Shown: positions 15,577 to 58,394 of the stretch, one piece after another
How positions within the stretch are numbered: the stretch's first letter is position 1
How the letters are laid out: the number at the start of each line of letters is the position of its first letter
Assembly: GCA_041661505.1 (NCBI GenBank)
Contig: JBAZUF010000001.1
Location: forward strand, 369,576 to 433,575
Source of the DNA: Patescibacteria group bacterium
GTDB taxonomy: Bacteria > Patescibacteriota > Patescibacteriia > Patescibacteriales > JBAZCA01
Length of the DNA stretch: 64,000 nt
Direction: 5' to 3'
Made by a program: the position numbers and the translations under genes
The notes under the pieces: model-generated
Told to the model about the DNA's origin: nothing
The model's database searches: none
Seen by the model: the letters and a program-made list of their open reading frames with translations, nothing else

Positions 15577-15648
15577 AGCGGGTAGGGGGAGTCGGACCCC
15601 CATCTCTACCTTGGCAAGGTAGCATAATAGCCGCTATACGATACCCGC
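15577..15648 (-). tRNA. tRNA-Gly (anticodon GCC), CCA not encoded
   Basis: Reverse complement gcgggtatcgtatagcggctattatgctaccTTGCCAAggtagagatgggggtccgactccccctacccgct. Confidence 0.9.
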
Positions 15649-15716
15649 GTAAGTCCGCTTCCAAGTAAATTCTTACGTGCAAGCTTCGTAAGAATCCACT
15701 AAGAGGCGAACACTTG

Positions 15717-15798
15717 TGGTCCAGGTGGGAGTCGAACCCACATGCCTTGCGGCACAGCATTTTAAGTGCTGCGTGTATACCAATTCCACCACTGGACC
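15717..15798 (-). tRNA. tRNA-Leu (anticodon UAA), CCA not encoded
   Basis: Reverse complement ggtccagtggtggaattggtatacacgcagcaCTTAAAAtgctgtgccgcaaggcatgtgggttcgactcccacctggacca, with a long variable arm. Confidence 0.9.
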
Positions 15799-16286
15799 TA
15801 ATTACCATTTCTCATTCTGTTTCTGCCTCGATGAGTCGGTTTTAAACTATGGCAATTAGGACAAAGAATTCTTAAGTTTACTAATCTATTATCCCGGCTA
15901 TTTCCATTGATGTGATCAAGCTCTAAAGGTATGCGCCCGTCAGCAGATTTTTTAGCCCAGCCGCATTCTTCGCATTTTGGATGTTTTATTCCTTCTTTAA
16001 AAAGGCGTTTTTTTAGCTTGAAACTTTGAAAATAACTATTTTTAACCAAAACCTTATTTAAAGCTATTCTTGGTTTTCCTATTCCTATTAATCCTCTGCT
16101 CCATCCTTTTCCCTTTAAATGACTGTCATCAATCTTCAAGTTTTTTATGAACTTTTTTACTTGCGTATAATTTCCTCCAGCCATGCGCAAATTTAATTTC
16201 TTCAGCACTTGTCTTATGCTTAAGGACGTTTTTACTGCTTGGCGAAGTTCTTTTTCTGTCCAGCTTCTTGGTCTCATATCTCCCAT
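15798..16286 (-). CDS. HNH endonuclease (homing-endonuclease-like)
   Basis: CEECGW...LELDHINGNSRDNRLVNLRILCPNCHS is an HNH beta-beta-alpha-metal motif with two CxxC pairs. The TAG stop occupies 15800-15798, so its G is nucleotide 1 of tRNA-Leu. The start is ATG 16286 or 16277 (the track uses TTG 16313). Confidence 0.8.
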   Translation of the reverse strand: MGDMRPRSWTEKELRQAVKTSLSIRQVLKKLNLRMAGGNYTQVKKFIKNLKIDDSHLKGKGWSRGLIGIGKPRIALNKVLVKNSYFQSFKLKKRLFKEGIKHPKCEECGWAKKSADGRIPLELDHINGNSRDNRLVNLRILCPNCHSLKPTHRGRNRMRNGN

Positions 16287-16355
16287 TATAACAAAAAGTA
16301 AAGGCTTAGACAAACGTCTGCTATTGCCTTTACCCTTTAGACTAGAATGGAAAAA

Positions 16356-19130: not shown

Positions 19131-20345
19131 ATGAGTAGCCTGCTTCTTATCAACCCGAACTTTGAAAGAAAAATCAACGGCCAGACTCCCTTGAATTTGG
19201 CATACCTGGCCGCCGCGATTGAAGCTTTTGTTCCGGTCAGAATCTTTGACCTGAACGTGCGGTCTTTTGTGGAGCTGGAGAAAATATTGAGTGAGTTTTG
19301 CCCGACCCATGTCGGCATCACGAGCTATACGCCTAATAACATCAGCGCCAAAGCCACCCTGAAGCAAATCCATGACCAGTACCCGCAAGTCATTACAATC
19401 AGCGGCGGCCCGCACGAATCTTACCGCGGACACATCACCAGAAAAATGTATCCCTGGATTGATCATGTGGTGACCGACCGGAAAGGCGAAAACGCTTTGG
19501 TTGAAATCATGACCGGAAAAAACATGCGGGTCGACTGGCGGACGATTTTTCCGGCCTATCATCTCTTGGACATGAATGAACCGAGCTACCGTTTTGACCA
19601 GCATCTTTTTGAGGGCAAGAGCATGGTTCAATACATGTCTTCCAGGGGATGTAATATGAGGTGTCTTTTCTGCGGTACCGAAGATTACATTCCGCTGAAA
19701 GTTCCGGTGGTGGTTGAGCATCTGAAAAAAATTGCTGATCTTGGATACGAGGCATTTTTCTTTAACGACGTTAATTTCATCTCGAGCGCCCGGCGCACCG
19801 CCGAACTTTCCCGGCAGATAGTCGCGAACGGCCTTAACTTTCTGGAATGGGGCTGCCAAACCGCCCTGGTCAAAGAAGTAACTGACGAAGTCTTGGAGTT
19901 GATGGTAGTCGCCGGTTGCTCCTATATCACCTTTTCACTGGAAAATCTTTCGCCTGATGCACTCCGGAAGATTGGCAAGCGCATTGATCCCGAATACGTG
20001 ACTGCCAAAGCTCTGTTTGCTAAAGAAATTGGGATGAAAATCGGCGTCTACGTCATGTTCGGAGTCCATAACAACGAGGAGGAAGACTGGTATTGGGCTA
20101 AAAAGACGCTTGACCGGATTGGAGAAATAAAGCCGGACTACGTGTCTTACAGTATTCTGGCCGACTATCCCAGCTCAAACCCTAACCTTCCTTACGAAAC
20201 CGAGGAATTCGGAACCGAGCCGGTCTGGCAGTTCTTTGATGAAGGCCGCGCCTATCACCCTTATACTACCGTCGGCTATGCTGAAAAACTCAAGACGGAA
20301 ATCGAAAAACGGCATCGGTTTTGGCCTGGAATCCGAAAATTTTAA
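19131..20345 (+). CDS. B12-binding-domain radical SAM enzyme (class B)
   Basis: The N-terminal Rossmann-like region LLLINPN...LAYLAAAIE...HVGITSYTP...ISGGPHES is followed by SSRGCNMRCLFCGTE (CxxxCxxC). Confidence 0.8.
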   Translation: MSSLLLINPNFERKINGQTPLNLAYLAAAIEAFVPVRIFDLNVRSFVELEKILSEFCPTHVGITSYTPNNISAKATLKQIHDQYPQVITISGGPHESYRGHITRKMYPWIDHVVTDRKGENALVEIMTGKNMRVDWRTIFPAYHLLDMNEPSYRFDQHLFEGKSMVQYMSSRGCNMRCLFCGTEDYIPLKVPVVVEHLKKIADLGYEAFFFNDVNFISSARRTAELSRQIVANGLNFLEWGCQTALVKEVTDEVLELMVVAGCSYITFSLENLSPDALRKIGKRIDPEYVTAKALFAKEIGMKIGVYVMFGVHNNEEEDWYWAKKTLDRIGEIKPDYVSYSILADYPSSNPNLPYETEEFGTEPVWQFFDEGRAYHPYTTVGYAEKLKTEIEKRHRFWPGIRKF

Positions 20346-20396
20346 CCGTTCCTTTTAAACCGTGGCTGGCCTTAGGTCAGCCAAAAATTCAAATAA

Positions 20397-20427
20397 AGAG
20401 CCAGTCCGGACAATTGGCTCTTTTTTC
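20397..20427 (+). terminator. Rho-independent terminator (possibly bidirectional)
   Basis: agagcca-N11-tggctct followed by ttttt. Confidence 0.75.
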
Positions 20428-20466: not shown

Positions 20467-21978
20467 TTAAGCAAACCCCGGAAAATAATCGGTTTTGATT
20501 TGTTTTCGCCTGACACCCATTTTTTTCAAAAGCTCTTCAAAGGTGAGTACCATGCCCCGCGGGCCGGAAAGATAAAAAATCCTCTCTCGGTAATCAGGCG
20601 CTTCCTTAATAATCATCGATTCATTAATCCTTCCGGTATAACACCAATTTGGCAAAACCGAGTCCTTATCCGTGACCAGGTAAACCGTTTTTAAGCCGAT
20701 TTTCTCTTCAGCCTGGTCAAAGACGTCCTTATAAACTATATCCCGGGCGAATTTATTGGAATAAAAAAGGACAATCGGCCGGGGCTCGTTCGTATCCAAG
20801 AGATATTTGATCATGCTCCGAAAAGGAGTGATGCCGATGCCGCCGCCGATAAATACCAATTTTTGCTTCCTGTCGGCCGGCATCGTAAAGTCGCCCGCGA
20901 GCTGGGAAGCGACAATAGTCTTGCCCTCGCCCATAGACGCGAATGACCTCTTGAAACTGCTCGGCTCGGGATAAAATTTTACGCCGAGCTTGATTTCCTT
21001 TTCGGTAGGTGAAGAGGCCAGGGTAAAAAAACGCCGAATGCCCCGGCTGTCCTCTCCCTTATGCCCAAGCGTCCATTCCATATATTGGCCGGGCGTAAAA
21101 ACCGCCTTTGAATCAGGCTTAAAAGAAAATTCAAAAATGTCCGGCGACAGTTCTCTTTTTTTCAGTAAGGCCAGAATGAATTTTTTCTTCGGGCCGACTG
21201 AATAGGAAAAAAGGTTGCCTAATAGGAGCGCCAGTTCCGGGGTGGAATAGATTGGGCCGATATGGATGGACGGTGCGAATAAAAGGCCGGTCAGGGCGCC
21301 GTAAACAATTCTCATTCTTTTTCGCGGCGGCGTAGTCATTGGTTCAGTGAGCATGATAAAGGAAAAAAACATTAAAGGCGAAGAAATAACCGCGCGATAA
21401 AGCGAAGTCGGAATGTTTTTCGCGGGGCCAGTCAGGGAAATAGAAACCAAGGCGGCAATAAAAAAAGTAAAAACCAAGTCAAACCTTTTTATTTTCCTAA
21501 CTACTAACAGCCCGGCAATGAGCACAAAGGGCGCCATATATAAGTTGCCGATCCACCAATTAGCCGGCTGGCTAATCGCCGCCGCGGTCAGGGCGACCGC
21601 GATCGCGGCCGGATTAAAAATATGCTTTTTATAGGGCGCGATTATGTATTTTGAGGCCATGGCAAGAATCCCGGCCCAGGCGAGAAAGGCCAGGTTTCCG
21701 AGCGGATTGACTGGAGAAATTATCAGGGCGAGAATAGCGGCGGTGATATATACCGAATCAATATTGGTCGGCGCCTCAAAAACAAAAGCGAAAACCAAAT
21801 CGGAAAAAACGCAAACCGCGAGTATAAAAGCGGCGGAAATAATTAAATCAGCCGGAGCAAAATACAAAACATTAAAAATGCTCAAGACCAAGGCGGCGAG
21901 CCAGATAAATATCAGGCTGTAAAGCGTCACCCGGTACATGGTTATATTGTTCAGGAAATTATCAATTCTTTTTAACAT
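20467..21978 (-). CDS. Fusion of an RnfD/NqrB-like polytopic membrane domain with an FNR-like FAD/NAD(P)H reductase domain
   Basis: The N-terminal part has about 8 TM helices with KHIFNPAA and FIMLTEPMTTPP (RnfD/NqrB-type motifs). The C-terminal part has RRFFTLASSP (RxFS FAD site) and FIGGGIGITP (GGxGxxP). Confidence 0.7.
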   Translation of the reverse strand: MLKRIDNFLNNITMYRVTLYSLIFIWLAALVLSIFNVLYFAPADLIISAAFILAVCVFSDLVFAFVFEAPTNIDSVYITAAILALIISPVNPLGNLAFLAWAGILAMASKYIIAPYKKHIFNPAAIAVALTAAAISQPANWWIGNLYMAPFVLIAGLLVVRKIKRFDLVFTFFIAALVSISLTGPAKNIPTSLYRAVISSPLMFFSFIMLTEPMTTPPRKRMRIVYGALTGLLFAPSIHIGPIYSTPELALLLGNLFSYSVGPKKKFILALLKKRELSPDIFEFSFKPDSKAVFTPGQYMEWTLGHKGEDSRGIRRFFTLASSPTEKEIKLGVKFYPEPSSFKRSFASMGEGKTIVASQLAGDFTMPADRKQKLVFIGGGIGITPFRSMIKYLLDTNEPRPIVLFYSNKFARDIVYKDVFDQAEEKIGLKTVYLVTDKDSVLPNWCYTGRINESMIIKEAPDYRERIFYLSGPRGMVLTFEELLKKMGVRRKQIKTDYFPGFA

Positions 21979-22001
21979 ACTTACTTAAGACAAACTAGTA
22001 A

Positions 22002-22763
22002 TTAAGCTTCATTTTTGTTCGGGTCAATATATTTTTGAAAATTACTGGTATACGTGGATCGTCCGTTTTTATCAATCATATAGCCTTCAAAGCCCTTGAG
22101 CTTCTCAATGAAAAAAATTCCGTCTCTGCCCATGGCGAAGCAGGCAGTAGCAAACCGGTCGGCCTCGTAAGCATTCGGTCCGATTACCGTCAGGCTCGCG
22201 ATTTCCGTAATCGGCTCTCCCCTTTTAAAAGGATTATATATGTGCTGGCCGCGGATATAGGTGCCGGAAGTGGCTATACCGGCATTTTTTAAACGGAGCA
22301 CTTTAACAATTTGCTCCTGGTTAAACGGATTTTTTATGCCTACGCTCCAGGGCTCTTCTCGGGAATTTTTGCCGTAAGCCTCAATGTCTCCGCCGGCGTT
22401 TACGTAAAAATTTTTGTACCTCAAATCCAGTAATATCCGGGCGGCGTTATGGATGGACCAGCCTTTAACAATTCCTGAAGGATTAATCCGGCCGTCATCA
22501 GCCATGATATCAAAAAAGCCATCAGTTTCAATCTTCGTAATTTCCGCCAATTTGAAAATTTCCTTCATGTCCTCGCTCCAGTCTTCTTCGGCGATTTTTC
22601 CCTGGTTGATTTTCGTTATTTCACTTTCCTCTTTAAAAGGGCTGAATTTCTCATCCACGTATCTAAAATAGGAAAAGGCTTTTTCCATCGCCCCTAAATC
22701 AGCTCCGGAGTCGGCGATTTCAATAGTAATTACGGTTCCCATCAAAGGCTTTGCCTCTTTCAT
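22002..22763 (-). CDS. apbE: ApbE-family FAD:protein FMN transferase, with no recognisable signal peptide
   Basis: PLMGTVITIEI, NAGGDIEAYG and GIATSGTYIRG. The N-terminus MKEAKPLMGT has no hydrophobic segment. Confidence 0.8.
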   Translation of the reverse strand: MKEAKPLMGTVITIEIADSGADLGAMEKAFSYFRYVDEKFSPFKEESEITKINQGKIAEEDWSEDMKEIFKLAEITKIETDGFFDIMADDGRINPSGIVKGWSIHNAARILLDLRYKNFYVNAGGDIEAYGKNSREEPWSVGIKNPFNQEQIVKVLRLKNAGIATSGTYIRGQHIYNPFKRGEPITEIASLTVIGPNAYEADRFATACFAMGRDGIFFIEKLKGFEGYMIDKNGRSTYTSNFQKYIDPNKNEA

Positions 22764-22774
22764 AAAAAGAATAA

Positions 22775-23800
22775 TTAATCGTCTTCATATTCACGCTCAT
22801 CTTCATACCCGCCTTCATCCTCCTGCGATGGCGGGGGGAGTTTTACAGTCTGGCTTTGAGCCTGGCTTATGTTTTGGCTTTGAGCTGGCGAGCCAGAGGC
22901 TTGCGTCCGGCTTTGGGTCTTAACCGCGGCTTGGCTTAAAGCCGAAGCCAGAGATTGTTTAAAACCAGTACTGGTATAGGTCGCTCCGGAAACAGTGTTA
23001 ACGTTAGAATTTTGCGCTTTTATCGCTTCCGATTTTAAAATCGGCATAGCCTGGGTGTTTATCAAGACCGAAGTCTGCCGGTCTTTGGGGTAGTCAAGAA
23101 AAGCGACATTAGTAATCTTCCCGCCCGCGATAGTCGCCCTTACCTGGACATTGCCGTAATAGACATTAAACGAAGCTCCGGTATAAGTCCCGTCTTTTAA
23201 AGAAGACGCCGGAGAAGAGGCGGTTGTTTGTTTTTTTACCGTTATTTTTGTAGAGGGCGGCACTGAAGAAGCTGGAGGGGCAGAAGGGGCGGCAGCCCGG
23301 GGCGAAGCGCTATTATTCGCGGAATCAGATTTCCCGGCCGCCTGAACCGAAGTCTGTCCCGATGCCTGGCTTAGGGCCGAAGAAAGCGAACTGATAAAAG
23401 CCTGGCTCGTATCGGTAGCGCCGGAAACTATATCGACCTGGGCGTTCTGGGCGTTAATGGCTTCGGATTTCAGGATTGGCATGGCTTGGTTATTTATCAG
23501 TATTGAAGTCTGCTGGTCTTGGGGGTGGTCAAGAAAAACCACATCCGTAATTTTTCCCCCGGAGATAACGGCTTTAACCTGGATATTGCCGTAATACGCG
23601 TCGGACGCGGCGCCAACATATTGCCCGTCTTTGTAGCCCGCCAAGCCGGACGGCTGGCCTGGCCCCGAAGAATTATTTTCTTCGGCCCGGACCAATCCTC
23701 CGCCGGTATTTTTTACCGCGGAGCGGTTAAAAGCCGAGTAAAAAACAAAGGCGGCGATTACAAAGCCTGATAAGATAAGTTTTTTCAGATGCACTTTCAT
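22775..23800 (-). CDS. Membrane-anchored protein with two FMN-binding (FMN_bind) domains
   Basis: N-terminal TM helix. Two repeated domains each carry a flavinylation-type motif (DIVSGATDTS and NTVSGATYTS). A Ser/Ala/Pro linker joins them and the tail is acidic. Confidence 0.75.
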   Translation of the reverse strand: MKVHLKKLILSGFVIAAFVFYSAFNRSAVKNTGGGLVRAEENNSSGPGQPSGLAGYKDGQYVGAASDAYYGNIQVKAVISGGKITDVVFLDHPQDQQTSILINNQAMPILKSEAINAQNAQVDIVSGATDTSQAFISSLSSALSQASGQTSVQAAGKSDSANNSASPRAAAPSAPPASSVPPSTKITVKKQTTASSPASSLKDGTYTGASFNVYYGNVQVRATIAGGKITNVAFLDYPKDRQTSVLINTQAMPILKSEAIKAQNSNVNTVSGATYTSTGFKQSLASALSQAAVKTQSRTQASGSPAQSQNISQAQSQTVKLPPPSQEDEGGYEDEREYEDD

Positions 23801-23901
23801 AAGTAGTTTTCATAATAATTTTCCCTACTATATATACGCATTTTCCTGATTAATAAATATCCTGATATTATGATAAAATCTCCTTAACTTTCCATTAAGA
23901 C

Positions 23902-23928
23902 AAAAAAACCGCCCCAGTTCGGGACGGA
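23902..23928 (-). terminator. Terminator of tig
   Basis: On the minus strand: ccgtccc-gaact-ggggcgg followed by ttttttt. Confidence 0.65.
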
Positions 23929-25483: not shown

Positions 25484-27481
25484 TTAAGCTAAGAGTAATC
25501 CGATGATGAGTAAGGCGACGATATTCAAAATCTTGATCATCGGGTTAATCGCCGGCCCGGCCGTATCTTTATAAGGGTCGCCGACCGTATCGCCGGTAAC
25601 CGCCGCCTGGTGGGCAAAGCTCCCTTTGCCGCCGAAGTTTCCGGATTCAATGTATTTCTTGGCATTATCCCAGGCTCCGCCGCCCGAAGTCATAGATATA
25701 GCGACAAAGATTCCGGTGATGATTGAGCCGACTAAAAGCCCGCCTAAAGCTTCAATACCTAAGACAAAACCCACCAAGATTGGCGCAAGCACTGGAATCA
25801 GGGCCGGGATAATCATTTCCCGGATCGCCGCTTTAGTAACGATATCCACGGTCTGGCCATAATCCGGTTTTTCCGTGCCGGCCATAATGCCCGGCTTGGC
25901 TTTAAACTGGTCGCGGACATTTTGCACTACCGCGCCGGCCGCCCGGCCGACCGCTTGCATGGACAAAGCGCCAAAATAATATGGAAGCAGTCCGCCGATA
26001 AATAATCCGGCCAGGACTCCGGGGTTAGATATGTCAAAAGTAAATTTACCAACCGGCAAAGCGTGGGTAAAATCGGCAAAAAGCACTAAAGCGGCCAAAG
26101 CGGCTGATCCGATAGCATAGCCTTTGGTAACGGCTTTAGTTGTATTGCCGACCGCATCTAAAGGATCGGTAACGTTTCGGACATCCTCTCCCATCTCCGC
26201 CATTTCGGCAATCCCTCCGGCGTTATCGGTAATCGGGCCGTAAGAGTCAATAGTAACGATGATGCCGGCCATGGATAGCATGGCCATAGCGGCGATCGCC
26301 ACGCCGTAAATTCCGGCTAAATTATAGGACGCTAAAATCGCGGCTACAATTACGATAACCGGCCAAGCAGTGGATTTCATGGAAACGGCCAAGCCAGTAA
26401 TGATGTTGGTGCCGTGTCCGGTTTCCGAGGCCTGGGCAATGTCTTTTACCGGCTTATATTTAGTTGAAGTATAATACTCGGTAATTATTACCAAAGCGGC
26501 GGTTACGGCCAAGCCGATTAAGGAAGCTAGGTAAATATTCATAACGCTATAATCCGGATTGGCGCTCATGAAGTAATTGGTTACCGGATAAAAGGCAATG
26601 GCCGATAAAACTCCGGCCGCGATCAAACCCTTGTATAAAGCGTTCATGATGTTTTGGCTTTGTCCCAATCGGATAAAAAAGGTGCCGATGATTGAGGCAA
26701 TAATGGAAACTGCGCCTAAAGCCAAAGGATAAATAATAGCGTTATCAAAACCGGCGAAAAGAAGAGAGCCGAGCATGATAGCGGCGATGGTCGTTACCAC
26801 GTAAGTTTCAAAAAGGTCAGCGGCCATGCCGGCGCAGTCGCCGACGTTATCGCCGACATTATCAGCGATTACGGCCGGGTTTCTCGGATCGTCTTCCGGA
26901 ATTCCGGCTTCCACCTTACCGACTAAGTCGGCTCCGACGTCAGCGGCTTTGGTAAAAATTCCGCCGCCTAAACGGGCAAAAATAGAAATTAAAGATCCGC
27001 CAAAACCTAAACCGATTAAGGCGTGGACATCTTTGGTAACAAAATAAAATCCGGCTGTGCCGAGTAAAGCAAGTCCAACGACTAACATGCCGGTAACGCT
27101 TCCGCCCTGCACCGCGACTGCCAAAGCTTTTTTAAGCCCTGACCGGGCGGCTTCGGCGGTTTTTAAATTAGCCCGGACCGAAACATTCATACCGATATAA
27201 CCGGTAGCGCCGGATAAAACCGCGCCGATTAAAAAAGCAACGGCGGTTGTCCAGCCTAAGCCCGGAACAAAACCGATAATGAGAAAAAGGACAACGGCGA
27301 CAATCGCCACGGTCCGATACTGCCGGTTCAAGTAAGCTTTAGCGCCTTCTTGGATGGCTTTGGCAATGGCTTGCATTTTGTCATTGCCGGAGGGAAGCTT
27401 TAAAATGATCCTGATTAAAACCACACCATAAATAATGGCCAGGATCGCGCTTCCGAAAATAGCGAAGAAAATCGTGTTCAT
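25484..27481 (-). CDS. hppA: Membrane-bound proton/sodium-translocating pyrophosphatase
   Basis: A 665-aa polytopic protein with [28 protein letters not shown] and [11 protein letters not shown] motifs. Confidence 0.95.
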
Positions 27482-31234: not shown

Positions 31235-31264
31235 TTGTCTATGCTAACTAGAGAGGTGGGTTTT

Positions 31265-32287
31265 ATGAAAAGAGAATTAACCAAAGAAAAATATTTTGGC
31301 TTGGGCCGGGTGCCAATCGGTATTGGCGCAGTCTTAAAAGGCTGGAATATTACTGAAGAGCATTTTAAGGACGCTTCTTCCCTTCCGGTGGTTGATTTTA
31401 GAGCCATGACTCCGGCCTGCCTGCACGACTGCTTCCATTGTTTTACCGACAAGTTAAAAAAGACCTTAACCCTAAAGGAGATAAAAAATATAATTGACCA
31501 GCTCGCGGAAATGAAAACTATCGCCATTGACTACTTAGGCGAGGGCGAACCGACTTTAGATCAGGATTTTTTCGAGATAATTGAATATACGGCGAAAAAA
31601 GGCATCCAGCCGATAATTTTTACCGATGCGGCTACCAAGCTTAGGGACAGGGATTTTGTAAAGAGAATAAGCGCGACCAGCGCTTCGGTCTGCCCTAAAT
31701 GCGACAGCCTCTGGAATAAGGATTTTCAAAACTGGGTAGTCGGCGACAAAACCGGAAAGTATTTTGATCAAAGAAACGAAGCGATACAAATGCTAATTGA
31801 AGAAGGATTTAATAAACCGGCAGCTGATGGCACCACGCGGCTCGGCTTCGACATGGTGGTCTGCCGGAAAAATATGCGCGAGGTGGAAAAAACTTTAAGA
31901 TATTGCCGGGAAAATAATTTATGGGTAATCTTTTCTTTTTATCTCCCTTCTGGCCGGAGCGGCCGCAATAATTTTGATAAATCTCTATTGCTTGCCAAAG
32001 AGGAAAAAAGGCAAATCCAGAAAATTGTAAAAAGAGTTGACGAAGAATACGGCTTCCATCATGAAATACATAACAACTTCCTTACTTCCCGCTGTGTCGA
32101 ATTTATGTGCATTTATGGCGACGGCCGGGTCTCGCCCTGCGTCGGCAACGAAAACATCGTCGGCAATATAAAAACCCACTCCATCAAAGAGCTGCGAAAA
32201 ATAATAATCGAAAAATTTCCCTGCCACGACCCCAAAACTTTTAACGGGAATTGCTGCTATCGAGAAACTATTCAAGCTCTAGTTTAG
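31265..32287 (+). CDS. Radical SAM enzyme with a Cys-rich C-terminal (SPASM/twitch-like) region
   Basis: ACLHDCFHCFTD (CxxxCxxC), GEGEPTL, and C-terminal CVEFMCIYGDGRVSPCVGN...CHDPKTFNGNCCYRE. ATG 31265 is preceded by GAGGTG (the track starts at TTG 31235). Confidence 0.75.
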   Translation: MKRELTKEKYFGLGRVPIGIGAVLKGWNITEEHFKDASSLPVVDFRAMTPACLHDCFHCFTDKLKKTLTLKEIKNIIDQLAEMKTIAIDYLGEGEPTLDQDFFEIIEYTAKKGIQPIIFTDAATKLRDRDFVKRISATSASVCPKCDSLWNKDFQNWVVGDKTGKYFDQRNEAIQMLIEEGFNKPAADGTTRLGFDMVVCRKNMREVEKTLRYCRENNLWVIFSFYLPSGRSGRNNFDKSLLLAKEEKRQIQKIVKRVDEEYGFHHEIHNNFLTSRCVEFMCIYGDGRVSPCVGNENIVGNIKTHSIKELRKIIIEKFPCHDPKTFNGNCCYRETIQALV

Positions 32288-32386: not shown

Positions 32387-33829
32387 CTAGGTCGGCCAGG
32401 GACCTCCGCTTTCCCATGCCCGAACCAGTTCCGGGCCATTGGCGATAATAAGAAGCCTGCGTCTCTCCCTGTTCAAGGTTTTCGCCTTGATATGAGGAGA
32501 ATTGTAGTTACTTCTTTCGTAACAATAGTCAGCTTGGCACCCAACTATTGCTTTTTCCAGCTGCTGGCCCAACGCCGTACCGGGAAGCGGAGTGACAAAG
32601 AAGAGGACGGCGCACTTCATGCCGCACTCGCGAAGGCGGGCGGCATAGCGCACTGTTTTTTCCACATCTTCCATGGTCTCGGACGGGAAGCCGATCATGA
32701 ATCCGCCATAAACTTCAATGCCAGCGGAATTAAGCGCCATCACAACCTGCTCTGCGATCTTCGGATCGCAATAAAGATTGCCCTTGTTAACCGACCGGAG
32801 AGTTTCCCGGCTGGCGCTTTCAACCGCCAGATAGATCCGGTAACAGCCGCAAGCGGCCATTTTTTGAATCAACTCCTGGTTAACGACCAGGCTCTGGTTT
32901 GTTTGGACGGTAAGCTGGCGGATGCCAATTCCGCCGATGGCTGTCCAGTCCAACCGCGCTTCATGGAGCAACTCGGCTATCTGGACGGCTCGCTTAGGAT
33001 TGGCCATGAAGTTGTCGTCTTCAATGACGACTTCTTTATAGCCTTCCTCCATGAGCTTGTCGAAAAGGCGCCGCACGTACTCCAGAGAATATGCGCGATG
33101 ATTGTGGCCGTGCACGGTTTCCACCGCGCAAAAATCACAATTATATGGACAGCCCCGAGTTGTGAAAACCTCCGCAACTTTCGTATTTCGCGCCTTTCCA
33201 CCATGGAACCGCTCGCCTCCGTACTGGATATTGCGAACCAGATGATAAGCTGGCAACGGCAGACTATCCAGGTTTATCACCGGCTGGCCCTGAACAACCC
33301 TTTCCTTGGGCGGATCGCCGCCAAGAAGCGACTTGACCAGACTAGTGAAAGCAATCTCGCCTTCACCCTTAACCAAATAATCGAAAGCGCCGGTAGCCAG
33401 AGACTGCTCGGGCTTGGTTGAGGCGTGGTAGCCGCCGGTAACTACCGTTATTTCGGGGAAGGCTTTCTTGATTGCCCTGCCCAGCTCAACATCCACATCG
33501 GACTGGGACGTAGTAAGGGAGGACAAGCCGATAATAGCCGGTTTAACCGCTGCGATCCGGTTCAGAATCTCTTCGATTTCCAGCCCGTAACGAAGAATAG
33601 GCTCTCCGTCGATCGGGGAAACTTCGCCGGTAAGATGCTCATTCTCGAATCCTTCGGCTGCCGCGTCCAAAAACGCAACGCTTATACCGGCTTCTTCAAG
33701 ACAGGCGGCTAATTGAAGAATGCCGCTGGGCATCCCGATCCGCTTTAATTGAAACCTAAAGCGGGTCTTGTGGGGATGGATAAACATAACTTGGAAATTT
33801 TTTTCTTTTTCTGTCATTATCGGCCTCAT
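32387..33829 (-). CDS. B12-binding-domain radical SAM enzyme (class B), second copy
   Basis: VMFIHPH...GILQLAACLEEAGISVAFLD...IIGLSSLTT...VTGGYHAS is followed by TTRGCPYNCDFCAVE. Confidence 0.8.
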   Translation of the reverse strand: MRPIMTEKEKNFQVMFIHPHKTRFRFQLKRIGMPSGILQLAACLEEAGISVAFLDAAAEGFENEHLTGEVSPIDGEPILRYGLEIEEILNRIAAVKPAIIGLSSLTTSQSDVDVELGRAIKKAFPEITVVTGGYHASTKPEQSLATGAFDYLVKGEGEIAFTSLVKSLLGGDPPKERVVQGQPVINLDSLPLPAYHLVRNIQYGGERFHGGKARNTKVAEVFTTRGCPYNCDFCAVETVHGHNHRAYSLEYVRRLFDKLMEEGYKEVVIEDDNFMANPKRAVQIAELLHEARLDWTAIGGIGIRQLTVQTNQSLVVNQELIQKMAACGCYRIYLAVESASRETLRSVNKGNLYCDPKIAEQVVMALNSAGIEVYGGFMIGFPSETMEDVEKTVRYAARLRECGMKCAVLFFVTPLPGTALGQQLEKAIVGCQADYCYERSNYNSPHIKAKTLNRERRRLLIIANGPELVRAWESGGPWPT

Positions 33830-34983
33830 CTCAACTCCTCCAGGTAATCAGGCAGTGCCAATGGAATTTGTTCATCCCCGTCAGTATAAAAAACTGAACA
33901 GGGGCAATACTCAAATAATCTAAATACCTCCCTCACCCGCTCAGAATCCAAGATGCGCTCGAGCGGCTCCTCTTTCAGATTTCCGTACTTCCGGCTATGA
34001 CTTGGGCAGTCCACTACATCGCCGTTCGGGTAAACAGTGAACGAATAAAGCGGACGGCGACATTGCGGCTGATCAATCATTCGCGTACCGTGTTCCGGCG
34101 ACCAGACAATTCCCAGTTCGGCGTCTTTGGCCGCCATTTTTTGGAAAAATTCACGGGCCCGGCCAAAATCATGGCAGACTGATTGCTCTTCATTTGAAGT
34201 CGAGATCTGAATAAATTCCTCAATCCAGGGAACAATGCCAAGCGCCCGGCAGAATGGTAAGAGGTCATTTAACGCCCGATTCTCGTTGTTAATGGTAACC
34301 GGCATTTCAACCGCCAGCCTCCCGTCACCCTGCATTCCCAGACGTAAGCATTCTTCAATCGTTTTCAAAGCCAACCGGAAATGCGGCCGCCCGACGAGCT
34401 GGTTATGCTTCGCTTCGATCGTATCGCGGATCGATATGATCAAAGCGATATTCCGGTCGTTCACCCAAGCTATTTCCGCGTTTGAGAGTAAGGTTCCGTT
34501 GGTAAATATCACCATTCCCAGCCCATGTCCGATAATCCGGTCAATATAATCAAAGGCGCTCTTCCAGGTAAAAAGTTCGCCTCCACCGGCGTAGATCACG
34601 GCCTGAACGCCAACCTGTTTGGCTGTACCGAGTATTGCCTCAAGCTCCTCGTTTCTAAAAAATGGGCCATCCAGATTGGCCAACAATTTGGATTTATCCT
34701 GACCGGTAAAACAGCCGCGGCAGACTTGGTTACAGGAGGTAGGTAGCATAATGTAGACAAACTGGAAACGCGGATCTCCCTCGCCGTTCTTCACCCATTT
34801 GAGATTATGGGCCATGATTTCTTCGGTTTCCTTGTTAACCGAATAATACTTTAAATGGCGCGCTGGGTTGATAATTGCTTTCGACTGAACGTTTGGGCCT
34901 CGAATAACTATTCCATCATCTTTCTTAAATTTAATCAGTTCCTTGAGTTGCATTTTTAATATCCTTTCATCCATTGTCAGCAT
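33826..34983 (-). CDS. Radical SAM enzyme with a Cys-rich C-terminal (SPASM/twitch-like) region, paralogous to 31265-32287
   Basis: PTSCNQVCRGCFTG (CxxxCxxC), AGGGELF, and C-terminal CRRPLYSFTVYPNGDVVDCPSH...EYCPCSVFY. It overlaps the downstream gene by 4 nt. Confidence 0.75.
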   Translation of the reverse strand: MLTMDERILKMQLKELIKFKKDDGIVIRGPNVQSKAIINPARHLKYYSVNKETEEIMAHNLKWVKNGEGDPRFQFVYIMLPTSCNQVCRGCFTGQDKSKLLANLDGPFFRNEELEAILGTAKQVGVQAVIYAGGGELFTWKSAFDYIDRIIGHGLGMVIFTNGTLLSNAEIAWVNDRNIALIISIRDTIEAKHNQLVGRPHFRLALKTIEECLRLGMQGDGRLAVEMPVTINNENRALNDLLPFCRALGIVPWIEEFIQISTSNEEQSVCHDFGRAREFFQKMAAKDAELGIVWSPEHGTRMIDQPQCRRPLYSFTVYPNGDVVDCPSHSRKYGNLKEEPLERILDSERVREVFRLFEYCPCSVFYTDGDEQIPLALPDYLEELR

Positions 34984-35913: not shown

Positions 35914-36516
35914 TTATCCTAATCGTTCGCTTACTTTTTCCCAGTTAATTATATCCCAGATTGAGGCGAAAAACTTTGCCCGATCGTTTTTGTAATCTAT
36001 GTAATAAGCGTGCTCGAAAGCGTCAACCACCATCAATATATTAAAATTCGGGTAAAGGTTAACGCTGTGTTTTTCTATTTGCATAAGCAGAAGGCGATCG
36101 GTCAGCCGGCAATAAGCCAAAGCCGCCCAGCCCGACCCTTCGACTGAAATTCCGGTTTTATTGAATTCATCTTTAAAGCGGTTAAAATCGCCAAAATCCT
36201 CTTTTATTTTATCCGCCAGTTTTCCCGAAGGCTCGCCGCCGCCTCCTTGTCCGGCAGGAGCCAAATTTTCCCAAAATAAAGAGTGTAAAACATGCCCGCC
36301 AATATTAAAAGACAAGGCCTTCAGTTCCGCTTTTATGTCAATTTCTATTTCACCCTTATGGACTTTGTCCAACTTTTCTAAAATCGCGTTCGCGCCAATA
36401 ACGTAAGCGGCGTGGTGTTTATCGTGATGGATTTTTAACTGCTCTTCGCTCATTACCGGTGCCAGCGCGCCATACTCGTAAGACAAGGACGGGAGAGAAT
36501 ATAATTTTTGAGGCAT
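35914..36516 (-). CDS. sodA: Fe/Mn superoxide dismutase
   Basis: [32 protein letters not shown] ... [11 protein letters not shown]. Confidence 0.9.
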
Positions 36517-39424: not shown

Positions 39425-39497
39425 GGGTGAGATACGGGGATCGAACCCGTAACGCTAGCGCCACAAGCTAGTGTGATACCACTTCACCAATCTCACC
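39425..39497 (-). tRNA. tRNA-His (anticodon GUG) with an extra 5' G that can pair with C73
   Basis: Reverse complement ggtgagattggtgaagtggtatcacactagcTTGTGGCgctagcgttacgggttcgatccccgtatctcaccc. Confidence 0.85.
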
Positions 39498-39500
39498 ATT

Positions 39501-39971
39501 TTACAATTTTTCTTTATGGTTATGTACTAAATGATGACAGTTTCTGCATAACCATACAAGATTTTGTATCGTATTATTTTTTCTATTACTGTCAATATGG
39601 TGGGCTTCTAAAACCCGTTTATCTTCTGTTCCGCATCTCTTGCATATCAACCGTACTTTACTTTTTATTAATAGACTCCTATAAATAAACGTGCCACCCT
39701 GCCATAGCGGATGATTTTCGCCGGAGTAATATACATTTCTCCATTTAGTTTGACAAGATTTGGAACAAAAAAACTTACCGCTTTTCGATCCGTTAAGATG
39801 CCTGGGCATTCTCCAAACTTCTTTTCCGCAAATTCCACAAATTACATATTTCCCCTTCCTGACTCCTAATGAACTGCATTTCCTGGAGCAGTATTTCCCC
39901 CATCCTAACTTTTGATGATTAGGCTTTGAGTAAAATTCTTTGTCGCAAATTTTACATTTAACTATTGGCAT
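39501..39971 (-). CDS. HNH endonuclease with N-terminal zinc-ribbon repeats
   Basis: Repeated CxxC...CxxC ribbons are followed by CKRCG...LEAHHIDSNRKNNTIQNLVWLCRNCHHLVH. The TAA stop lies 3 nt before the tRNA-His 5' end. Confidence 0.8.
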   Translation of the reverse strand: MPIVKCKICDKEFYSKPNHQKLGWGKYCSRKCSSLGVRKGKYVICGICGKEVWRMPRHLNGSKSGKFFCSKSCQTKWRNVYYSGENHPLWQGGTFIYRSLLIKSKVRLICKRCGTEDKRVLEAHHIDSNRKNNTIQNLVWLCRNCHHLVHNHKEKL

Positions 39972-40089: not shown

Positions 40090-40164
40090 TGGTACGCCCA
40101 GTTGGAATCGGACCAACATATCCAGCTTAGAAGGCTGGTGTTCTATCCATTGAACTATGGGCGC
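40090..40164 (-). tRNA. tRNA-Arg (anticodon UCU), CCA encoded
   Basis: Reverse complement gcgcccatagttcaatggatagaacaccagcCTTCTAAgctggatatgttggtccgattccaactgggcgtacca. Confidence 0.9.
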
Positions 40165-40252: not shown

Positions 40253-42400
40253 TTATCGGCTGGCGCCCGAATAGCTTATAGCTCGGATTATACTCCAATC
40301 CTGGTAATTTATCGGCAACCTCCCGTAAACCTGGGCAAAGGTACTTAAAGCCGCCTGTTCCTTTAAAACATCCCTTTGGGGGCGGAGGCCGTAAGCCATG
40401 ATAGTTATGGCGGCGTTATCGTAAGAGTCCAGCATGTTTGGCTGGCGGTGATAGATTTTAACAAAATCCGCTTTTACCGCCTCTTCGCGTTCCGGATTTC
40501 TTTGGGACGGCCAGCGGCCATTAGCGATTTTTCGCGCGTCTTCCCATTCGCTTTCGCTCTCCGGGTTTTTTCCAAAGGCGTCAAAATACGATTTTAAAAT
40601 TTCTTCTTTTTCCGCCGCCGAAAAATTTTCCAAATAATCAACCTTCACTCCCAGCACCTCCCCTTTTTCTTCGCTCGCCTGGTCTTCATTCTTTTTCTCC
40701 TCATTAACGTTTTTATCAGCATTTTTTTCGCTATCATCCTTATCGTCTTTGACAAACTCTTCAATTTTTTCTTTATCCTTACCGCCTTCCTCTATTTTTT
40801 CTTCGTTCACGCTTTCTCCAGCCGGAATTTCATTTTTCACGCCCTCGACTTTGGAAAAATCATTCATTAAGGAATTCCAGTCTTTCCCTAAAGCCGCCGG
40901 AACCGCGTAGGCCGTCGCCCAGATCCTGGTATCTAACGGCGCGTCTTCTTTTTCCAACCCTCCGTCAGCCGCCTGCAAGGCTGCTAAAAAATCTTTCGGA
41001 TCGCTCCCGTTTTTTGCCCAGCCACCAGCATCCTCGCCCAAAGCATTTATCGCCATCAAAACCCAGCTGGTAGAAAAACTGTTGCCAAACCCGCCGTCTT
41101 CTTTTTGGCTCGCAGCCAGATAGCTTTTTGCTTTGGCTATCGCTTCGCCTATTTTCGCGTCCTGGGAAAGCGGACGCAAGGCCTGGATGGCGGCCGCCGT
41201 CAGATCGACTCCGCCAAAACTGCCGCTTGCGTCTTGTCCTGACAAAATATAGTTTACGTCTTTGGCGATTATTTCATCGCCCGCGCCAAACCCGGCATTT
41301 TCCAAAACCAAGAGGGAGAAAATATCGTCATTATTATAATCCGGATCGCCGAACTGGACGCCGTCAAATTGGCTGGTTATTTTTTTTATGTAATCGATTT
41401 TTAACCCGTTGTAAGGATTAATATTTAGAGCCATTAAAGCCATGGCCCGCCGGACATAATCGGTTAAGCCAAAACCGCTATCCGACGCGCCCTGGTAATA
41501 GCTTTTTATTTTTTCTAAATTTTCTCCCGGTCCGTAAGCGCTAAAGGCGATCGCCGCCCAGTCGGTAATCATGGGACTCGCGAACGACCCATCCTCCTTT
41601 TGATTCTTCGCTAAAAATTCTATGGCTTTTCCCAGATCAAAAGCTTTTTCCAAGGGCAAAAAGTATCCCCCGCCGCCGTTAATTCCGCTGTTTATCGGAA
41701 CAGCTTCAGGTACTGGTTCTTCGGCCGGTGCCTCATGCCCGCTAATTACTATGGCCGGGCTGTCTAAAAACCCCGGTTTTTTTCCGTAAACAGTTAAAGG
41801 AGTTGTTGTAGCGGCCGTAAATTTATAGCCTCCGTCGGCCGCTTCATTTTCCGCTCCGTCCACCAAAACCTTACTGCCCGCGGACGGACTCCAAACCGGA
41901 TTCCAGTCCGCGTCCAAGCCAAACTGATAAACTTTTATCTCCACCTCACTGCCGACCGTCGGCGTTGTAGTGGAAGTTTCAATTTTTAAAGGGTTTGTAT
42001 CATAAACAAGGAGCAAAGAATCATTTTCGCTTAATATCTGTTTGTTTAAAGCTAGCATGCCATAGTCCAGGTTTAAAAAATAGGACCAATAGATTCCGTT
42101 GCCGTCTTTATTGTTTTCATAAGTTCCGATTGAATTTAAAAAAGCGTCGCTGCCCCAATAGCTGAAATTATTCAAAAGCCCCGATTGCTCTATGGCGCAC
42201 TTGGCGTTTAAGGTTTCGGTCTCCGCGTCCGGACTTTCTTTGCAGGGGGAAACGCTTATATCTCCATTAAACAAGCTCTCGCCCGCGGTTTCCATTCTTA
42301 AATGAATAGTGGCGGCGCTAACGCCAAACGGCGCGGCTAGGATAAGCGCGGCCAGGATAATAATTCCTGAATTTTTAAAACTGATTTTCTGCGTTTTCAT
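40253..42400 (-). CDS. Secreted protein: DUF4430-like domain plus alpha/alpha-toroid (prenyltransferase/terpenoid-cyclase-like) repeats plus a shared C-terminal repeat module; transcobalamin-like domain set
   Basis: Signal peptide ...APFGVSA. The N-terminal IYWSYFLNLDYGMLALNKQILSENDSLLLVY is a DUF4430-type ending. Toroid repeats are KNQKEDGSFASPMITDWAAIAF, ASQKEDGGFGNSFSTSWVLMAI and ALQAADGGLEKE...RIWATAYAVPAL. The C-terminus is homologous to that of 51053-53788. Confidence 0.6.
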   Translation of the reverse strand: MKTQKISFKNSGIIILAALILAAPFGVSAATIHLRMETAGESLFNGDISVSPCKESPDAETETLNAKCAIEQSGLLNNFSYWGSDAFLNSIGTYENNKDGNGIYWSYFLNLDYGMLALNKQILSENDSLLLVYDTNPLKIETSTTTPTVGSEVEIKVYQFGLDADWNPVWSPSAGSKVLVDGAENEAADGGYKFTAATTTPLTVYGKKPGFLDSPAIVISGHEAPAEEPVPEAVPINSGINGGGGYFLPLEKAFDLGKAIEFLAKNQKEDGSFASPMITDWAAIAFSAYGPGENLEKIKSYYQGASDSGFGLTDYVRRAMALMALNINPYNGLKIDYIKKITSQFDGVQFGDPDYNNDDIFSLLVLENAGFGAGDEIIAKDVNYILSGQDASGSFGGVDLTAAAIQALRPLSQDAKIGEAIAKAKSYLAASQKEDGGFGNSFSTSWVLMAINALGEDAGGWAKNGSDPKDFLAALQAADGGLEKEDAPLDTRIWATAYAVPAALGKDWNSLMNDFSKVEGVKNEIPAGESVNEEKIEEGGKDKEKIEEFVKDDKDDSEKNADKNVNEEKKNEDQASEEKGEVLGVKVDYLENFSAAEKEEILKSYFDAFGKNPESESEWEDARKIANGRWPSQRNPEREEAVKADFVKIYHRQPNMLDSYDNAAITIMAYGLRPQRDVLKEQAALSTFAQVYGRLPINYQDWSIIRAISYSGASR

Positions 42401-43106
42401 ACTTCCAGCTGATTACATCGCCGGGCTTTAATTCATACCCTGAAATTCCAACGTTAGCCGGCTTGTTGTTAATATAGTAAATCCAAAACTCTCCGGTTTT
42501 GGGATTATTTTTTATTCCATTTATTTCTTCAACAAAAAACCCGATTCCTGAATAATTTTTCCCGCTAAACGACAGCGCTCCCTTATTTTTCAGGCTGTCC
42601 ATTAAATCATAAACCGTACTTCTGGGCAAAACCGAGGCGCCGAATTTTTCACTGCCAATATAAAGCGCGGCCGGATACATGTTTTCTGACTGGACAATCT
42701 CTACTTCCTTTTCGCGAGCGCCATCTCCGCCTGGCACAGTTTCATTTACAGCCGAAACAGATTGATTAACCGCCGCGGAACCCGTATCTGACCCAATTTT
42801 ATTGCCCGCCACTTCCTTTTTTGGCAGATTATTCGATTTGTCAGAATCGGCCGAGGTCTTCTTCTCTATATAACCATTCAACCCCGGATTATCGGTTAAT
42901 CCCAAACCATCTTCCGAAACACTGCCTTGAGGCTCTGCGCTTTCTTCGGCGGCCAGATTAGAATCGCCGCTTATTTTTTCCGAGACCGGCAGTTCTTTAT
43001 TGGCGTCCGAATCCAGCCAGCCTGCATTTCCAATAAACGTTAAGGATAAAAAGACGAAAAAAGCCGCCAACACAATCATTCTAAATTTTTTGGAAAAATT
43101 TATCAT
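42375..43106 (-). CDS. Membrane-anchored DUF4430-domain protein
   Basis: N-terminal TM helix. The C-terminal 100 aa, ...TVYDLMDSLKNKGALSFSGKNYSGIGFFVEEINGIKNNPKTGEFWIYYINNKPANVGISGYELKPGDVISWKY, form a typical DUF4430 pattern. Confidence 0.7.
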   Translation of the reverse strand: MINFSKKFRMIVLAAFFVFLSLTFIGNAGWLDSDANKELPVSEKISGDSNLAAEESAEPQGSVSEDGLGLTDNPGLNGYIEKKTSADSDKSNNLPKKEVAGNKIGSDTGSAAVNQSVSAVNETVPGGDGAREKEVEIVQSENMYPAALYIGSEKFGASVLPRSTVYDLMDSLKNKGALSFSGKNYSGIGFFVEEINGIKNNPKTGEFWIYYINNKPANVGISGYELKPGDVISWKYENAENQF

Positions 43107-43336
43107 ACAAAAACCCGCCTTTCGAGCGGGTAAATAAATTCAACTGTTGTAAAGCCAAAGCTTGAACTAAAAAATAAACAAAGGCCTGAATTTATTTTCC
43201 TCTTTGCTCGAAGAGAAAATATTTATTTTAGGCCTTGGTGTTCTGGCTTTCCTTGTTCTTCGCCTAAATAGCGCGGAACAAAAATTACAGTTGCGGCACA
43301 GCGCCCGATTTTCACGGGACTTTCCCAAAGCTATGC
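43107..43336 (-). promoter_or_regulatory. Cobalamin (B12) riboswitch-like leader with two terminator-type hairpins
   Basis: The minus-strand RNA reads UUGGGAAAGUCCCGUGAAAAUCGGGCGCUGUGCCGCAACUGUAA (43326-43285), then the hairpin UUGUUC...GAACAA, then GGAAAGCCAGAACACCAAGGCC (B12-box-like, 43249-43231). CCGCAACUGUAA fits the CCGCnACUGUnA core exactly, judged against my memory of the Rfam RF00174 consensus. Hairpin plus U-run combinations occur at 43169-43236 and 43107-43131, and the second ends 1 nt before the ATG. Confidence 0.65.
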
Positions 43337-43340
43337 ACTA

Positions 43341-43369
43341 ATTATATCTGATTAAAAGTGGCCAGTCAA
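43341..43369 (-). promoter_or_regulatory. Sigma70-like promoter TTGACT-17-TATAAT driving the riboswitch leader
   Basis: The minus strand reads ttgactggccacttttaatcagatataat. Confidence 0.65.
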
Positions 43370-47502: not shown

Positions 47503-47558
47503 GGAGTGGTAGCTCAGTTGGTTGCCTGCCTGCCGGCAGGCAGGGAGCGCTGCCCTGT
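47503..47558 (+). pseudogene. Displaced tRNA-Asp 5' fragment (nt 1-35) interrupted by the 20-nt palindrome CCTGCCTGCCGGCAGGCAGG
   Basis: ggagtggtagctcagttggtt G [palindrome 47525-47544] gagcgctgccctgt. Homology to the tRNA ends after anticodon position 35. Confidence 0.8.
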
Positions 47559-47559
47559 T

Positions 47560-47874
47560 ATGTTCTATATTTATGCTCTGTTATTTGAATCAGGCAGAAT
47601 ATACGTCGGTATGACGTCTGATTTAGAAACCCGAATAAAAGATCATAAACGTGGAAAGACAAAATCCACAAAAAACAGAGGAAATTTCCAAGTCGCAATT
47701 CTTGGGGAAGCAGAAAACCGGACAAACGCACGCCAAAAAGAAAAGTACTGGAAATCAGGATGTGGCAAAGAAAAAATAAAAACTACCTGGAGTGGTAGCT
47801 CAGTTGGTTACCTGCCTGCCGGCAGGCAGGGAGCGCTGCCCTGTTATGTTCTATATTTATGCTCTGTTATTTGA
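47560..47874 (+). CDS. GIY-YIG nuclease-family protein (YhbQ-like), copy 1, with read-through extension because the stop is disrupted
   Basis: MFYIYALLFESGRIYVGMTSDLETRIKDHKRGKTKSTKNRG... has the GIY...YVG motif. The palindrome destroys the TAG used by copy 2, so the frame continues for 21 codons. Confidence 0.65.
   Translation: MFYIYALLFESGRIYVGMTSDLETRIKDHKRGKTKSTKNRGNFQVAILGEAENRTNARQKEKYWKSGCGKEKIKTTWSGSSVGYLPAGRQGALPCYVLYLCSVI
47789..47844 (+). pseudogene. Second displaced tRNA-Asp 5' fragment with the same 20-nt palindrome (47811-47830)
   Basis: ggttA[cctgcctgccggcaggcagg]GAGCGC is an exact insertion relative to ggttAGAGCGC of the intact tRNA. Confidence 0.8.
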
Positions 47875-58383: not shown

Positions 58384-58394
58384 AATTTTCCAGG

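Follow-up and report, generated by a model that had tools for sequence, protein, structure and literature searches.

A probable NQR/RNF-like flavin complex encoded together with a leaderless, compact ApbE in a Patescibacteria genome

A 64,000-nucleotide stretch of DNA from a Patescibacteria group bacterium (contig JBAZUF010000001.1), here called the window, carries at 20467-23800 an operon of three minus-strand genes. They encode an anchored protein with two FMN_bind domains, a flavin transferase of the ApbE family and a fusion of an RnfD/NqrB-like membrane domain with an FNR-type domain for flavin adenine dinucleotide (FAD) and reduced nicotinamide adenine dinucleotide (phosphate) (NAD(P)H). 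In our judgement the operon probably specifies a two-subunit NQR/RNF-like complex together with its own flavin transferase, moving electrons from NAD(P)H to flavin mononucleotide (FMN) at the cell surface. It belongs to a published, experimentally uncharacterised class, the NQR/RNF-like systems. Architecture, mechanism and the missing RnfD SGAT motif are already in the literature; the absence of a leader from the ApbE is not addressed in the papers searched.

The three open reading frames (ORFs) fill 20467-23800 with intergenic gaps of 11 nt and 23 nt and lie where a first-pass annotation of the window had placed them as a flavin operon. Between them the three products match FMN_bind, ApbE, NQR2_RnfD_RnfE and NAD_binding_1. 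The genes and their parts are as follows (lengths in amino acids, aa):

22775-23800, minus strand: gene of the FMN_bind protein (NqrC/RnfG-like subunit), 341 aa
23729-23779, minus strand: signal-anchor helix of the FMN_bind protein, aa 8-24, LILSGFVIAAFVFYSAF, following MKVHLKK; no twin-arginine motif
23363-23638, minus strand: FMN_bind domain 1, aa 55-146 (Pfam)
23414-23434, minus strand: predicted flavinylation motif DIVSGAT, aa 123-129, acceptor Thr129
22928-23203, minus strand: FMN_bind domain 2, aa 200-291 (Pfam)
22979-22999, minus strand: predicted flavinylation motif NTVSGAT, aa 268-274, acceptor Thr274
22002-22763, minus strand: ApbE gene, 253 aa
20467-21978, minus strand: gene of the membrane domain/FNR fusion, 503 aa
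21193-21978, minus strand: RnfD/NqrB-like membrane domain, aa 1-262, about 10 transmembrane helices, N-in/C-in
20467-21180, minus strand: FNR-type FAD/NAD(P)H domain, aa 267-503, with RRFFTLASSP and GGGIGITP; stop codon included

The fusion defines the system. Its 503-aa product matches PF03116 (NQR2_RnfD_RnfE; E=5.3e-12, 46.1 bits against a cutoff of 27.7) and PF00175 (NAD_binding_1; E=5.6e-14, 53.2 bits against a cutoff of 22). An AlphaFold2 (AF2) model (predicted local distance difference test score, pLDDT, 87.4; predicted template modelling score, pTM, 0.82) has some ten helices in the membrane, as far as residue 261, and after them a beta-barrel and a Rossmann FNR module. Both results bear out the RnfD/NqrB-like/FNR fusion that the first-pass annotation had described. 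A Foldseek comparison of the membrane domain with NqrB/RnfD was dominated by matches of the FNR domain, namely to the FNR domains of flavohaemoglobin, NqrF and SpNOX. With the AF2 helices taken as transmembrane segments, the loops of the fusion hold 13 Lys and Arg residues inside and 2 outside; over 63 family members the means are 11.1 and 2.3. This positive-inside bias argues for an N-in/C-in protein whose FNR domain lies in the cytoplasm, with NAD(P)H, and whose short conserved loops face outward. RnfD/NqrB likewise is a ten-helix, N-in/C-in protein (PMC12174285).

Two motifs, KKHxFNPxA and TEPxTxP, are invariant in the membrane domain of the family. In the Protein Data Bank (PDB), a profile of this domain matched only RnfD of A. 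vinelandii, positions 149-255 aligning to RnfD 220-325 (E=1.2e-4), and the alignment holds no counterpart of the RnfD loop upstream. KKHxFNPxA probably corresponds to the NPFNPA motif of RnfD (RsxD), and the flavinylated Thr of RnfD presumably sits in the long outer loop that follows this motif. Since only about 20 residues lie between KKHxFNPxA and the next helix of the fusion, the Thr-bearing loop appears to be deleted. On this alignment the flavinylation loop appears absent rather than merely mutated. Neither the window fusion nor any of about 49 homologues checked has a [ST]G[AS][TS] motif in its membrane domain, in keeping with the earlier remark that the RnfD-like part lacks an SGAT site of its own; this loss had already been reported by Huang et al. 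2024 (PMC10979944).

The 341-aa product of the first gene matches PF04205 (FMN_bind) in two stretches (E=3.7e-20), the two domains being 67% identical to one another and each carrying an SGAT motif. The membrane-anchored double FMN_bind protein with a D/NxxSGAT motif per domain, as first annotated, is thereby recovered in full. The N-terminus, MKVHLKK followed by 17 hydrophobic residues that form the sole N-terminal hydrophobic segment, is of the Sec type and may be an uncleaved anchor. A low-complexity linker rich in Ser, Ala and Pro and an acidic C-terminal tail ending in EREYEDD complete the protein. Multi-flavinylated proteins are extracytosolic and have more than one FMN_bind domain; the window protein has two PF04205 stretches and two SGAT motifs, and its anchor predicts a location outside. 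Proteins with more than one FMN_bind domain, some of them linked to transmembrane systems, were catalogued in 2021 (PMC8238504), and the pairing of domains seen here is a clade-level variant of a known theme.

The 253-aa product of the middle gene matches PF02424 (ApbE; E=2e-41). With a top 19-residue Kyte-Doolittle score of 0.98 it has neither a transmembrane helix nor a signal peptide, as the first-pass annotation had noted, and an in-frame stop together with the stop codon of the upstream gene, 11 nt away, leaves no room for a longer N-terminus. It is some 50-60 residues shorter than the solved ApbEs and aligns to them as two blocks that skip residues 106-158 of the E. coli enzyme (about 53 residues). 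Its AF2 model (pLDDT 94.1) reaches query-normalised TM-scores of 0.80-0.88 with every ApbE, Ftp and FmnB structure among the Foldseek matches, Listeria FmnB (7esb, E=2e-21) being the top one. ATSG, H174, D202xxxT206 and GD125-126 are invariant across 62 family members. His174 aligns with the site of the H257G mutation in V. cholerae 6nxj, and the residue at the position of E. coli Tyr60 is aromatic. With its motifs intact and its predicted fold matched, the protein looks like an active, compact FAD:protein FMN transferase. It thus has the fold and the metal/phosphate and catalytic residues of the ApbE/Ftp family; it is not an exported lipoprotein or secreted enzyme, the typical, not universal, form of that family.

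At E<1e-5, homologues of the fusion number more than 7,700; the best 120 listed are mostly about 505 aa long (range 483-538) and show both Pfam domains or PF00175 alone. For synteny we recovered 48 loci from GTDB species representatives, referred to by L numbers where they must be told apart. Most are from Patescibacteria (Microgenomates, Gottesmanbacteria, Woesebacteria, Saccharimonadia and others) and Chloroflexi. About 40 of the 48 keep the order FMN_bind-ApbE-fusion on one strand, the stop codon of one gene frequently overlapping the start codon of the next, and the usual partner is a single-domain FMN_bind protein of 145-230 aa. Among the closest relatives of the window operon, whose fusions are 63-67% identical, the FMN_bind partner is expanded: L051 has two FMN_bind genes, L052 a single-domain gene and a double-domain gene, and L053 a double-domain protein. 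Domain 1 of the window protein is closest (75%) to the first, single-domain FMN_bind gene of L051, and domain 2 resembles the second-gene type of the relatives (SGATYTSTGF); the 341-aa protein therefore looks, from its sequence, like a fusion of two such single-domain genes. The longer FMN_bind proteins of L052 and L053 end in EYEDD like the window protein. This acidic tail (nt 22778-22801 in the window) is common to the double-domain proteins of the clade (L052, 3164-4237; L053, 1-747) and could bind cations or serve as a sorting or docking signal.

Several further features recur around the module. A Saccharimonadia/Paceibacteria subgroup (L031, L033, L035, L036, L041, L043) encodes another type of ApbE, about 290 aa long and also leaderless, with the N-terminus ..F.AIGT.W. 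At those loci whose upstream region was recovered (L031, L035, L036, L041), this region encodes a small anchored protein with SGAS or SGSS, Ser replacing the acceptor Thr. L031 has the fusion gene in two tandem copies. At 13 of the 48 loci (L001, L005, L010-L012, L016, L018, L019, L024, L025, L027, L030, L037) the module stands beside genes for an HlyD-like protein, an ABC ATPase, a MacB/FtsX permease and a small DUF5666 protein, at most about 5 kb from the fusion gene, and seven of these loci also have a two-component system; none of these neighbours occurs in the window. No conserved acceptor gene was found beside the module across the 48 loci.

Comparison with the published catalogue of ApbE-associated gene clusters places the operon in the NQR/RNF-like system, which Méheust et al. 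2021 (eLife) described as a fusion of PF03116 with PF00175 located in a flavinylation cluster and found in 127 clusters, mainly of Actinobacteria and the candidate phyla radiation (CPR) (PMC8238504). By that definition PF03116 stands N-terminal and PF00175 C-terminal in one protein, at most five genes from an ApbE and/or FMN_bind gene. The window fusion has this domain order, in agreement with its AF2 architecture, and its three genes are adjacent on one strand. Huang et al. 2024, who modelled the complex of Ktedonobacter and reported the loss of the flavinylated Thr of RnfD/NqrB, describe a fusion without this conserved Thr and an NqrC/RnfG-like FMN carrier (PMC10979944); the window operon has such a fusion, and its partner protein carries two SGAT sites. 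The window module shares with this system the defining fusion beside an ApbE and an NqrC/RnfG-like FMN_bind protein, a host range of candidate phyla radiation and Chloroflexi, the lost flavinylated Thr and the proposal of a one-way path from NAD(P)H to the outside. Unlike most relatives, with one domain, its FMN_bind subunit has two.

To Na+-NQR and Rnf the module is related through a homologous membrane subunit, an FMN_bind subunit of the covalently flavinylated type, an NqrF-like FNR module and the dependence on ApbE. In contrast to these six-subunit complexes, it comprises only D/B-like, G/C-like and F-like (FNR only) parts: genes for NqrA/RnfC, NqrD/E (RnfA/E) and RnfB were not found in the window, the FNR part has no 2Fe-2S ferredoxin domain, and the RnfD-like domain, of about 260 aa, is without the covalent FMN loop, so that by its sequence the fusion offers no Thr for covalent FMN on this subunit. 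Electron flow is proposed to be one-way outward, whereas theirs is semicircular. The NCBIfam equivalogs score far below their cutoffs (rnfD 19.8 against 207, nqrF 45.7 against 295, nqrC 24.6 against 144, and NqrB likewise); together with the low score of PplA given below, this makes the window proteins relatives and not orthologues.

The first-pass annotation had also drawn a comparison with flavin-based extracellular electron transfer (EET) of Listeria, in which PplA and FmnB correspond to the FMN_bind protein and the ApbE. Only as an analogy does this hold: in both cases the cell is monoderm, one surface protein carries two FMN_bind domains of the ApbE-flavinylated type, and the electrons derive from NAD(P)H. 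The likeness does not extend to the components. The Listeria pathway (Ndh2, DmkA/B, EetA/B, PplA, FmnB, FmnA/RibU) uses a different membrane route, that of the window module involving no quinone, and Ndh2, EetAB and Dmk domains were not found in the window by Pfam scans. Whereas PplA is a lipoprotein, the window FMN_bind protein is anchored by a transmembrane helix and lacks a lipobox (PplA model NF041941, 25.5 bits against a cutoff of 325). FmnB, too, is exported as a lipoprotein and depends on FAD being exported; the window ApbE is leaderless. The NOX/MsrQ-type fusions (SpNOX, PDB 8qta) likewise consist of a membrane domain for electron transfer with an FNR module fused to its C-terminal end in the cytoplasm, and MsrQ-like flavinylation clusters follow the same membrane-domain/FNR logic (PMC8238504). 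Their membrane part is a six-helix di-haem ferric-reductase domain, in contrast to the RnfD/NqrB-like and presumably flavin-based domain of the window fusion.

For the class as a whole, a chain from NAD(P)H through FAD and the membrane domain to surface FMN is the published model (PMC8238504; PMC10979944). The chain that the first-pass annotation had proposed agrees with it and is supported by the architecture described above. We infer the following path for the window complex. ApbE would transfer FMN from FAD to Thr129 and Thr274. The cytoplasmic FNR domain of the fusion would take a hydride from NAD(P)H onto a non-covalent FAD, and electrons would then traverse the membrane via the RnfD/NqrB-like domain. 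In RnfD/NqrB, a covalent FMN on the periplasmic side lies about 8 Å from a riboflavin on the cytoplasmic side (PMC12174285), and the likely route here is the reverse of the path between these two flavins. Since the RnfD-like domain is without its covalent-FMN loop, the FMN of the partner protein is proposed to fill the vacated outer site; it is the covalent FMN of the membrane-proximal FMN_bind domain that may dock there. The second domain would relay electrons outward to an external acceptor, for which ferric iron, free flavins and an oxidant supplied by a host are candidates. In this way NAD(P)+ could be regenerated in a fermentative cell without a respiratory chain.

Several observations weigh against this reading. 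We found no experimental work on any member of the NQR/RNF-like class in the literature. Similarity to solved RnfD is limited to the C-terminal half of the membrane domain. No gene for an acceptor or a terminal reductase lies in or beside the operon. Finally, a leaderless ApbE faced with a substrate predicted to be outside leaves at least one step of biogenesis unexplained.

The same architecture might serve an assimilatory role, its surface flavins reducing Fe(III) or siderophore iron for uptake rather than acting as a general electron sink. A VIT1 ferrous-iron transporter is present in 6 of the 127 NQR/RNF-like clusters, and Méheust et al. proposed iron uptake for the analogous MsrQ-like and PepSY-like systems (PMC8238504). 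The acidic EYEDD tail, if it binds cations, would also suit such a role. However, neither the operon, nor the window, nor the conserved neighbours of the 48 loci include an iron transporter or a Fur-type regulator, and the neighbours that do recur are the HlyD/ABC/MacB-type genes. We regard iron uptake as unlikely, if slightly less so than the competing explanations considered below.

What stands out is the location of the enzyme relative to its substrate. An N-terminal leader is absent from all of the roughly 45 operon-linked ApbEs. Signal peptides were found in none of the 120 closest ApbE homologues (233-269 aa), nearly all of which show the conserved MG[MT] motif among their first 12 residues, and in none of 124 full-length representatives of ApbE clusters at 50% identity; the hydrophobic N-terminal stretches among the latter are only the first beta-strand of the fold. 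The anchors of the FMN_bind proteins (n=39) have a two-Lys N-flank (MKK, then the transmembrane helix) and a neutral C-flank, favouring N-in/C-out in 32 of the 39, and are followed by low-complexity linkers, many of them proline-rich. By these features the anchors look like ordinary Sec signal-anchors and the FMN_bind domains are predicted to lie outside the cell. Leaderless enzymes facing partners with N-in/C-out anchors make the mismatch, which the first-pass annotation had raised for this one operon, a real and family-wide one. The papers that define and model NQR/RNF-like systems do not address the leaderless ApbE of the class (PMC8238504, PMC10979944).

Three simple ways around the mismatch were rejected. 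An ApbE tethered outside by a readthrough or frameshift fusion to the FMN_bind gene is contradicted by the different frames of the two genes in the window, separated by 11 nt, and by the junctions at other loci, which vary (4-nt overlaps, small gaps) and keep no conserved frame relation. Export of a pre-folded flavoprotein by the twin-arginine (Tat) route finds no twin arginine in any of the 39 anchors. A mis-called start that hides a leader fails as well, the longest possible ORFs containing no hydrophobic segment and the calls of several pipelines beginning at the same conserved MKxTxxxMG motif. Three options remain: the protein is flavinylated in the cytoplasm and only then exported by Sec, another ApbE that is exported is encoded elsewhere in the genome, or the FMN_bind domains are themselves cytoplasmic.

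The first of these we put forward as a possibility rather than as the expected outcome: family-wide, the leaderless ApbE would flavinylate the still unfolded FMN_bind protein with cytoplasmic FAD, and the protein would then pass through Sec with its FMN attached. Short unfolded flavinylation tags are substrates of ApbE, and E. coli can export biotinylated domains, which makes flavinylation before Sec export physically plausible. If this were so, the export of FAD, for which Listeria has FmnA/RibU, would not be needed.

Cytoplasmic FMN_bind domains would dissolve the mismatch altogether: flavinylated by a cytoplasmic ApbE, they would belong not to an extracytosolic conduit but to an NAD(P)H oxidoreductase that faces inward or is coupled to ions. 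This would fit an ApbE that is leaderless here and throughout the clade, and the only characterised bacterial leaderless ApbE in a review of the family, that of Klebsiella pneumoniae, modifies a cytoplasmic substrate, soluble fumarate reductase (PMC12052999). The window ApbE resembles the Klebsiella enzyme in lacking a signal peptide, but its substrate is Sec-anchored and predicted outside. Moreover, the Lys-Lys N-flanks and neutral C-flanks of the anchors point to N-in/C-out, and multiplied domains joined to long linkers of low complexity, which in close relatives are rich in proline, suit proteins that span a wall. The vacated flavin site of the RnfD-like domain is on the outer face, as in RnfD/NqrB, and it is to this face that the FMN_bind domain is docked in the AlphaFold-multimer model of the literature (PMC10979944). 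Taken together, these points make cytoplasmic domains improbable. We are equally sceptical that the leaderless ApbE handles cytoplasmic flavin, by FAD hydrolysis, in trafficking or on another target, with a second, secreted ApbE flavinylating the FMN_bind domains: the operon enzyme does lack about 53 residues of canonical ApbEs, Ftp of T. pallidum shows that the ApbE fold can act as an FAD pyrophosphatase (PMC4767422), and the genome was inspected over 64 kb only, but the residues linked to transfer are kept (His174, equivalent to V. cholerae H257, ATSG, DxxxT and the aromatic residue at E. coli Tyr60), the ApbE gene sits between those of substrate and partner in about 40 of the 48 loci, where successive genes frequently overlap at their stop and start codons, and two ApbEs seem unlikely in genomes of about 1 Mb.

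The operon is flanked by the following elements, found as consensus matches only:

23867-23894, minus strand: promoter-like site TGGAAA-16 nt-CATAAT, lying between the FMN_bind gene and the terminator hairpin of trigger factor
23909-23927: terminator-like hairpin after the trigger-factor gene, upstream of the operon
20395-20423, no strand assigned: terminator-like hairpin with an 11-bp stem and T-runs on both strands, between the convergent fusion and B12-radical-SAM genes

The promoter-like site is a pattern match, and the count of such sites is not above the shuffled expectation. As sequence patterns the flanking sites are consistent with a self-contained three-gene operon. A public record of the same DNA (ENA ERZ27249449, a contig of 335 kb) has an identical gene order with shorter starts, giving an ApbE of 246 aa and a fusion of 490 aa. 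We prefer the long starts (253 aa and 503 aa) because the residues upstream of the public ones are conserved in family alignments.

For the wider surroundings, the 53 largest ORFs across the 64 kb were scanned with Pfam. Beyond the operon, no gene for a quinone pathway, a cytochrome, Rnf/Nqr or an NADH dehydrogenase was found among them, in line with the earlier statement that no respiratory chain is visible in the window. The scanned genes include housekeeping functions (trigger factor, NusA, SmpB/tmRNA, IF3, L20, RNase J) and those for glycogen metabolism, a H+-pyrophosphatase, a Fe/Mn superoxide dismutase, B12-radical-SAM enzymes and pilin-like proteins. CPR bacteria are thought to be fermentative and without respiratory chains, and the gene content of the window fits a fermentative Patescibacteria genome. 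Apart from the membrane H+-pyrophosphatase (25484-27481), no ion-motive enzyme was seen in the window, and the superoxide dismutase (35914-36516) implies some exposure to oxygen.

Radical SAM genes lie at 19131-20345 (plus), 31235-32287 (plus), 32387-33829 (minus) and 33826-34983 (minus); two of them have a B12-binding domain, one is plain and one is of the SPASM type. Regulators of the TrmB family adjoin three of these (regulator/radical SAM gene: 18107-18838/19131-20345, 30370-31101/31235-32287, 35093-35827/33826-34983), and one such pair flanks the flavin operon. An adenosylcobalamin (AdoCbl) riboswitch at 43189-43353 (minus; 51.7 bits against a gathering score of 50) stands directly upstream of a DUF4430 protein (42375-43106), and a 715-aa ORF without Pfam match (40253-42400) is also downstream of it; together they are probably an operon for B12 binding or uptake. 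Small HNH and GIY-YIG endonuclease ORFs (15798-16313, 39501-39971, 47506-47874) occur beside tRNA genes (15577-15798, 39426-39496, 40093-40164, 48075-48148). At 57805-63500, ORFs without Pfam matches surround a Shufflon_N/pilin-like protein (61325-62467), probably forming a type IV pilus or pseudopilin cluster.

A widespread, conserved module that could dump electrons of NAD(P)H onto acceptors outside the cell would change the view of redox balance in CPR bacteria and of their dependence on hosts or minerals; this idea is already published. Of the features described, only the compact, leaderless ApbE might open new ground. Resolving its mismatch with the substrate would either change the topology that the published model assumes or show that surface flavoproteins can be made by a new route. 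If flavinylation does precede export, extracytosolic covalent flavoproteins would have a new path of biogenesis, one that would suit minimal genomes. The compact ApbE could also serve as a small cytoplasmic flavin-tagging enzyme.

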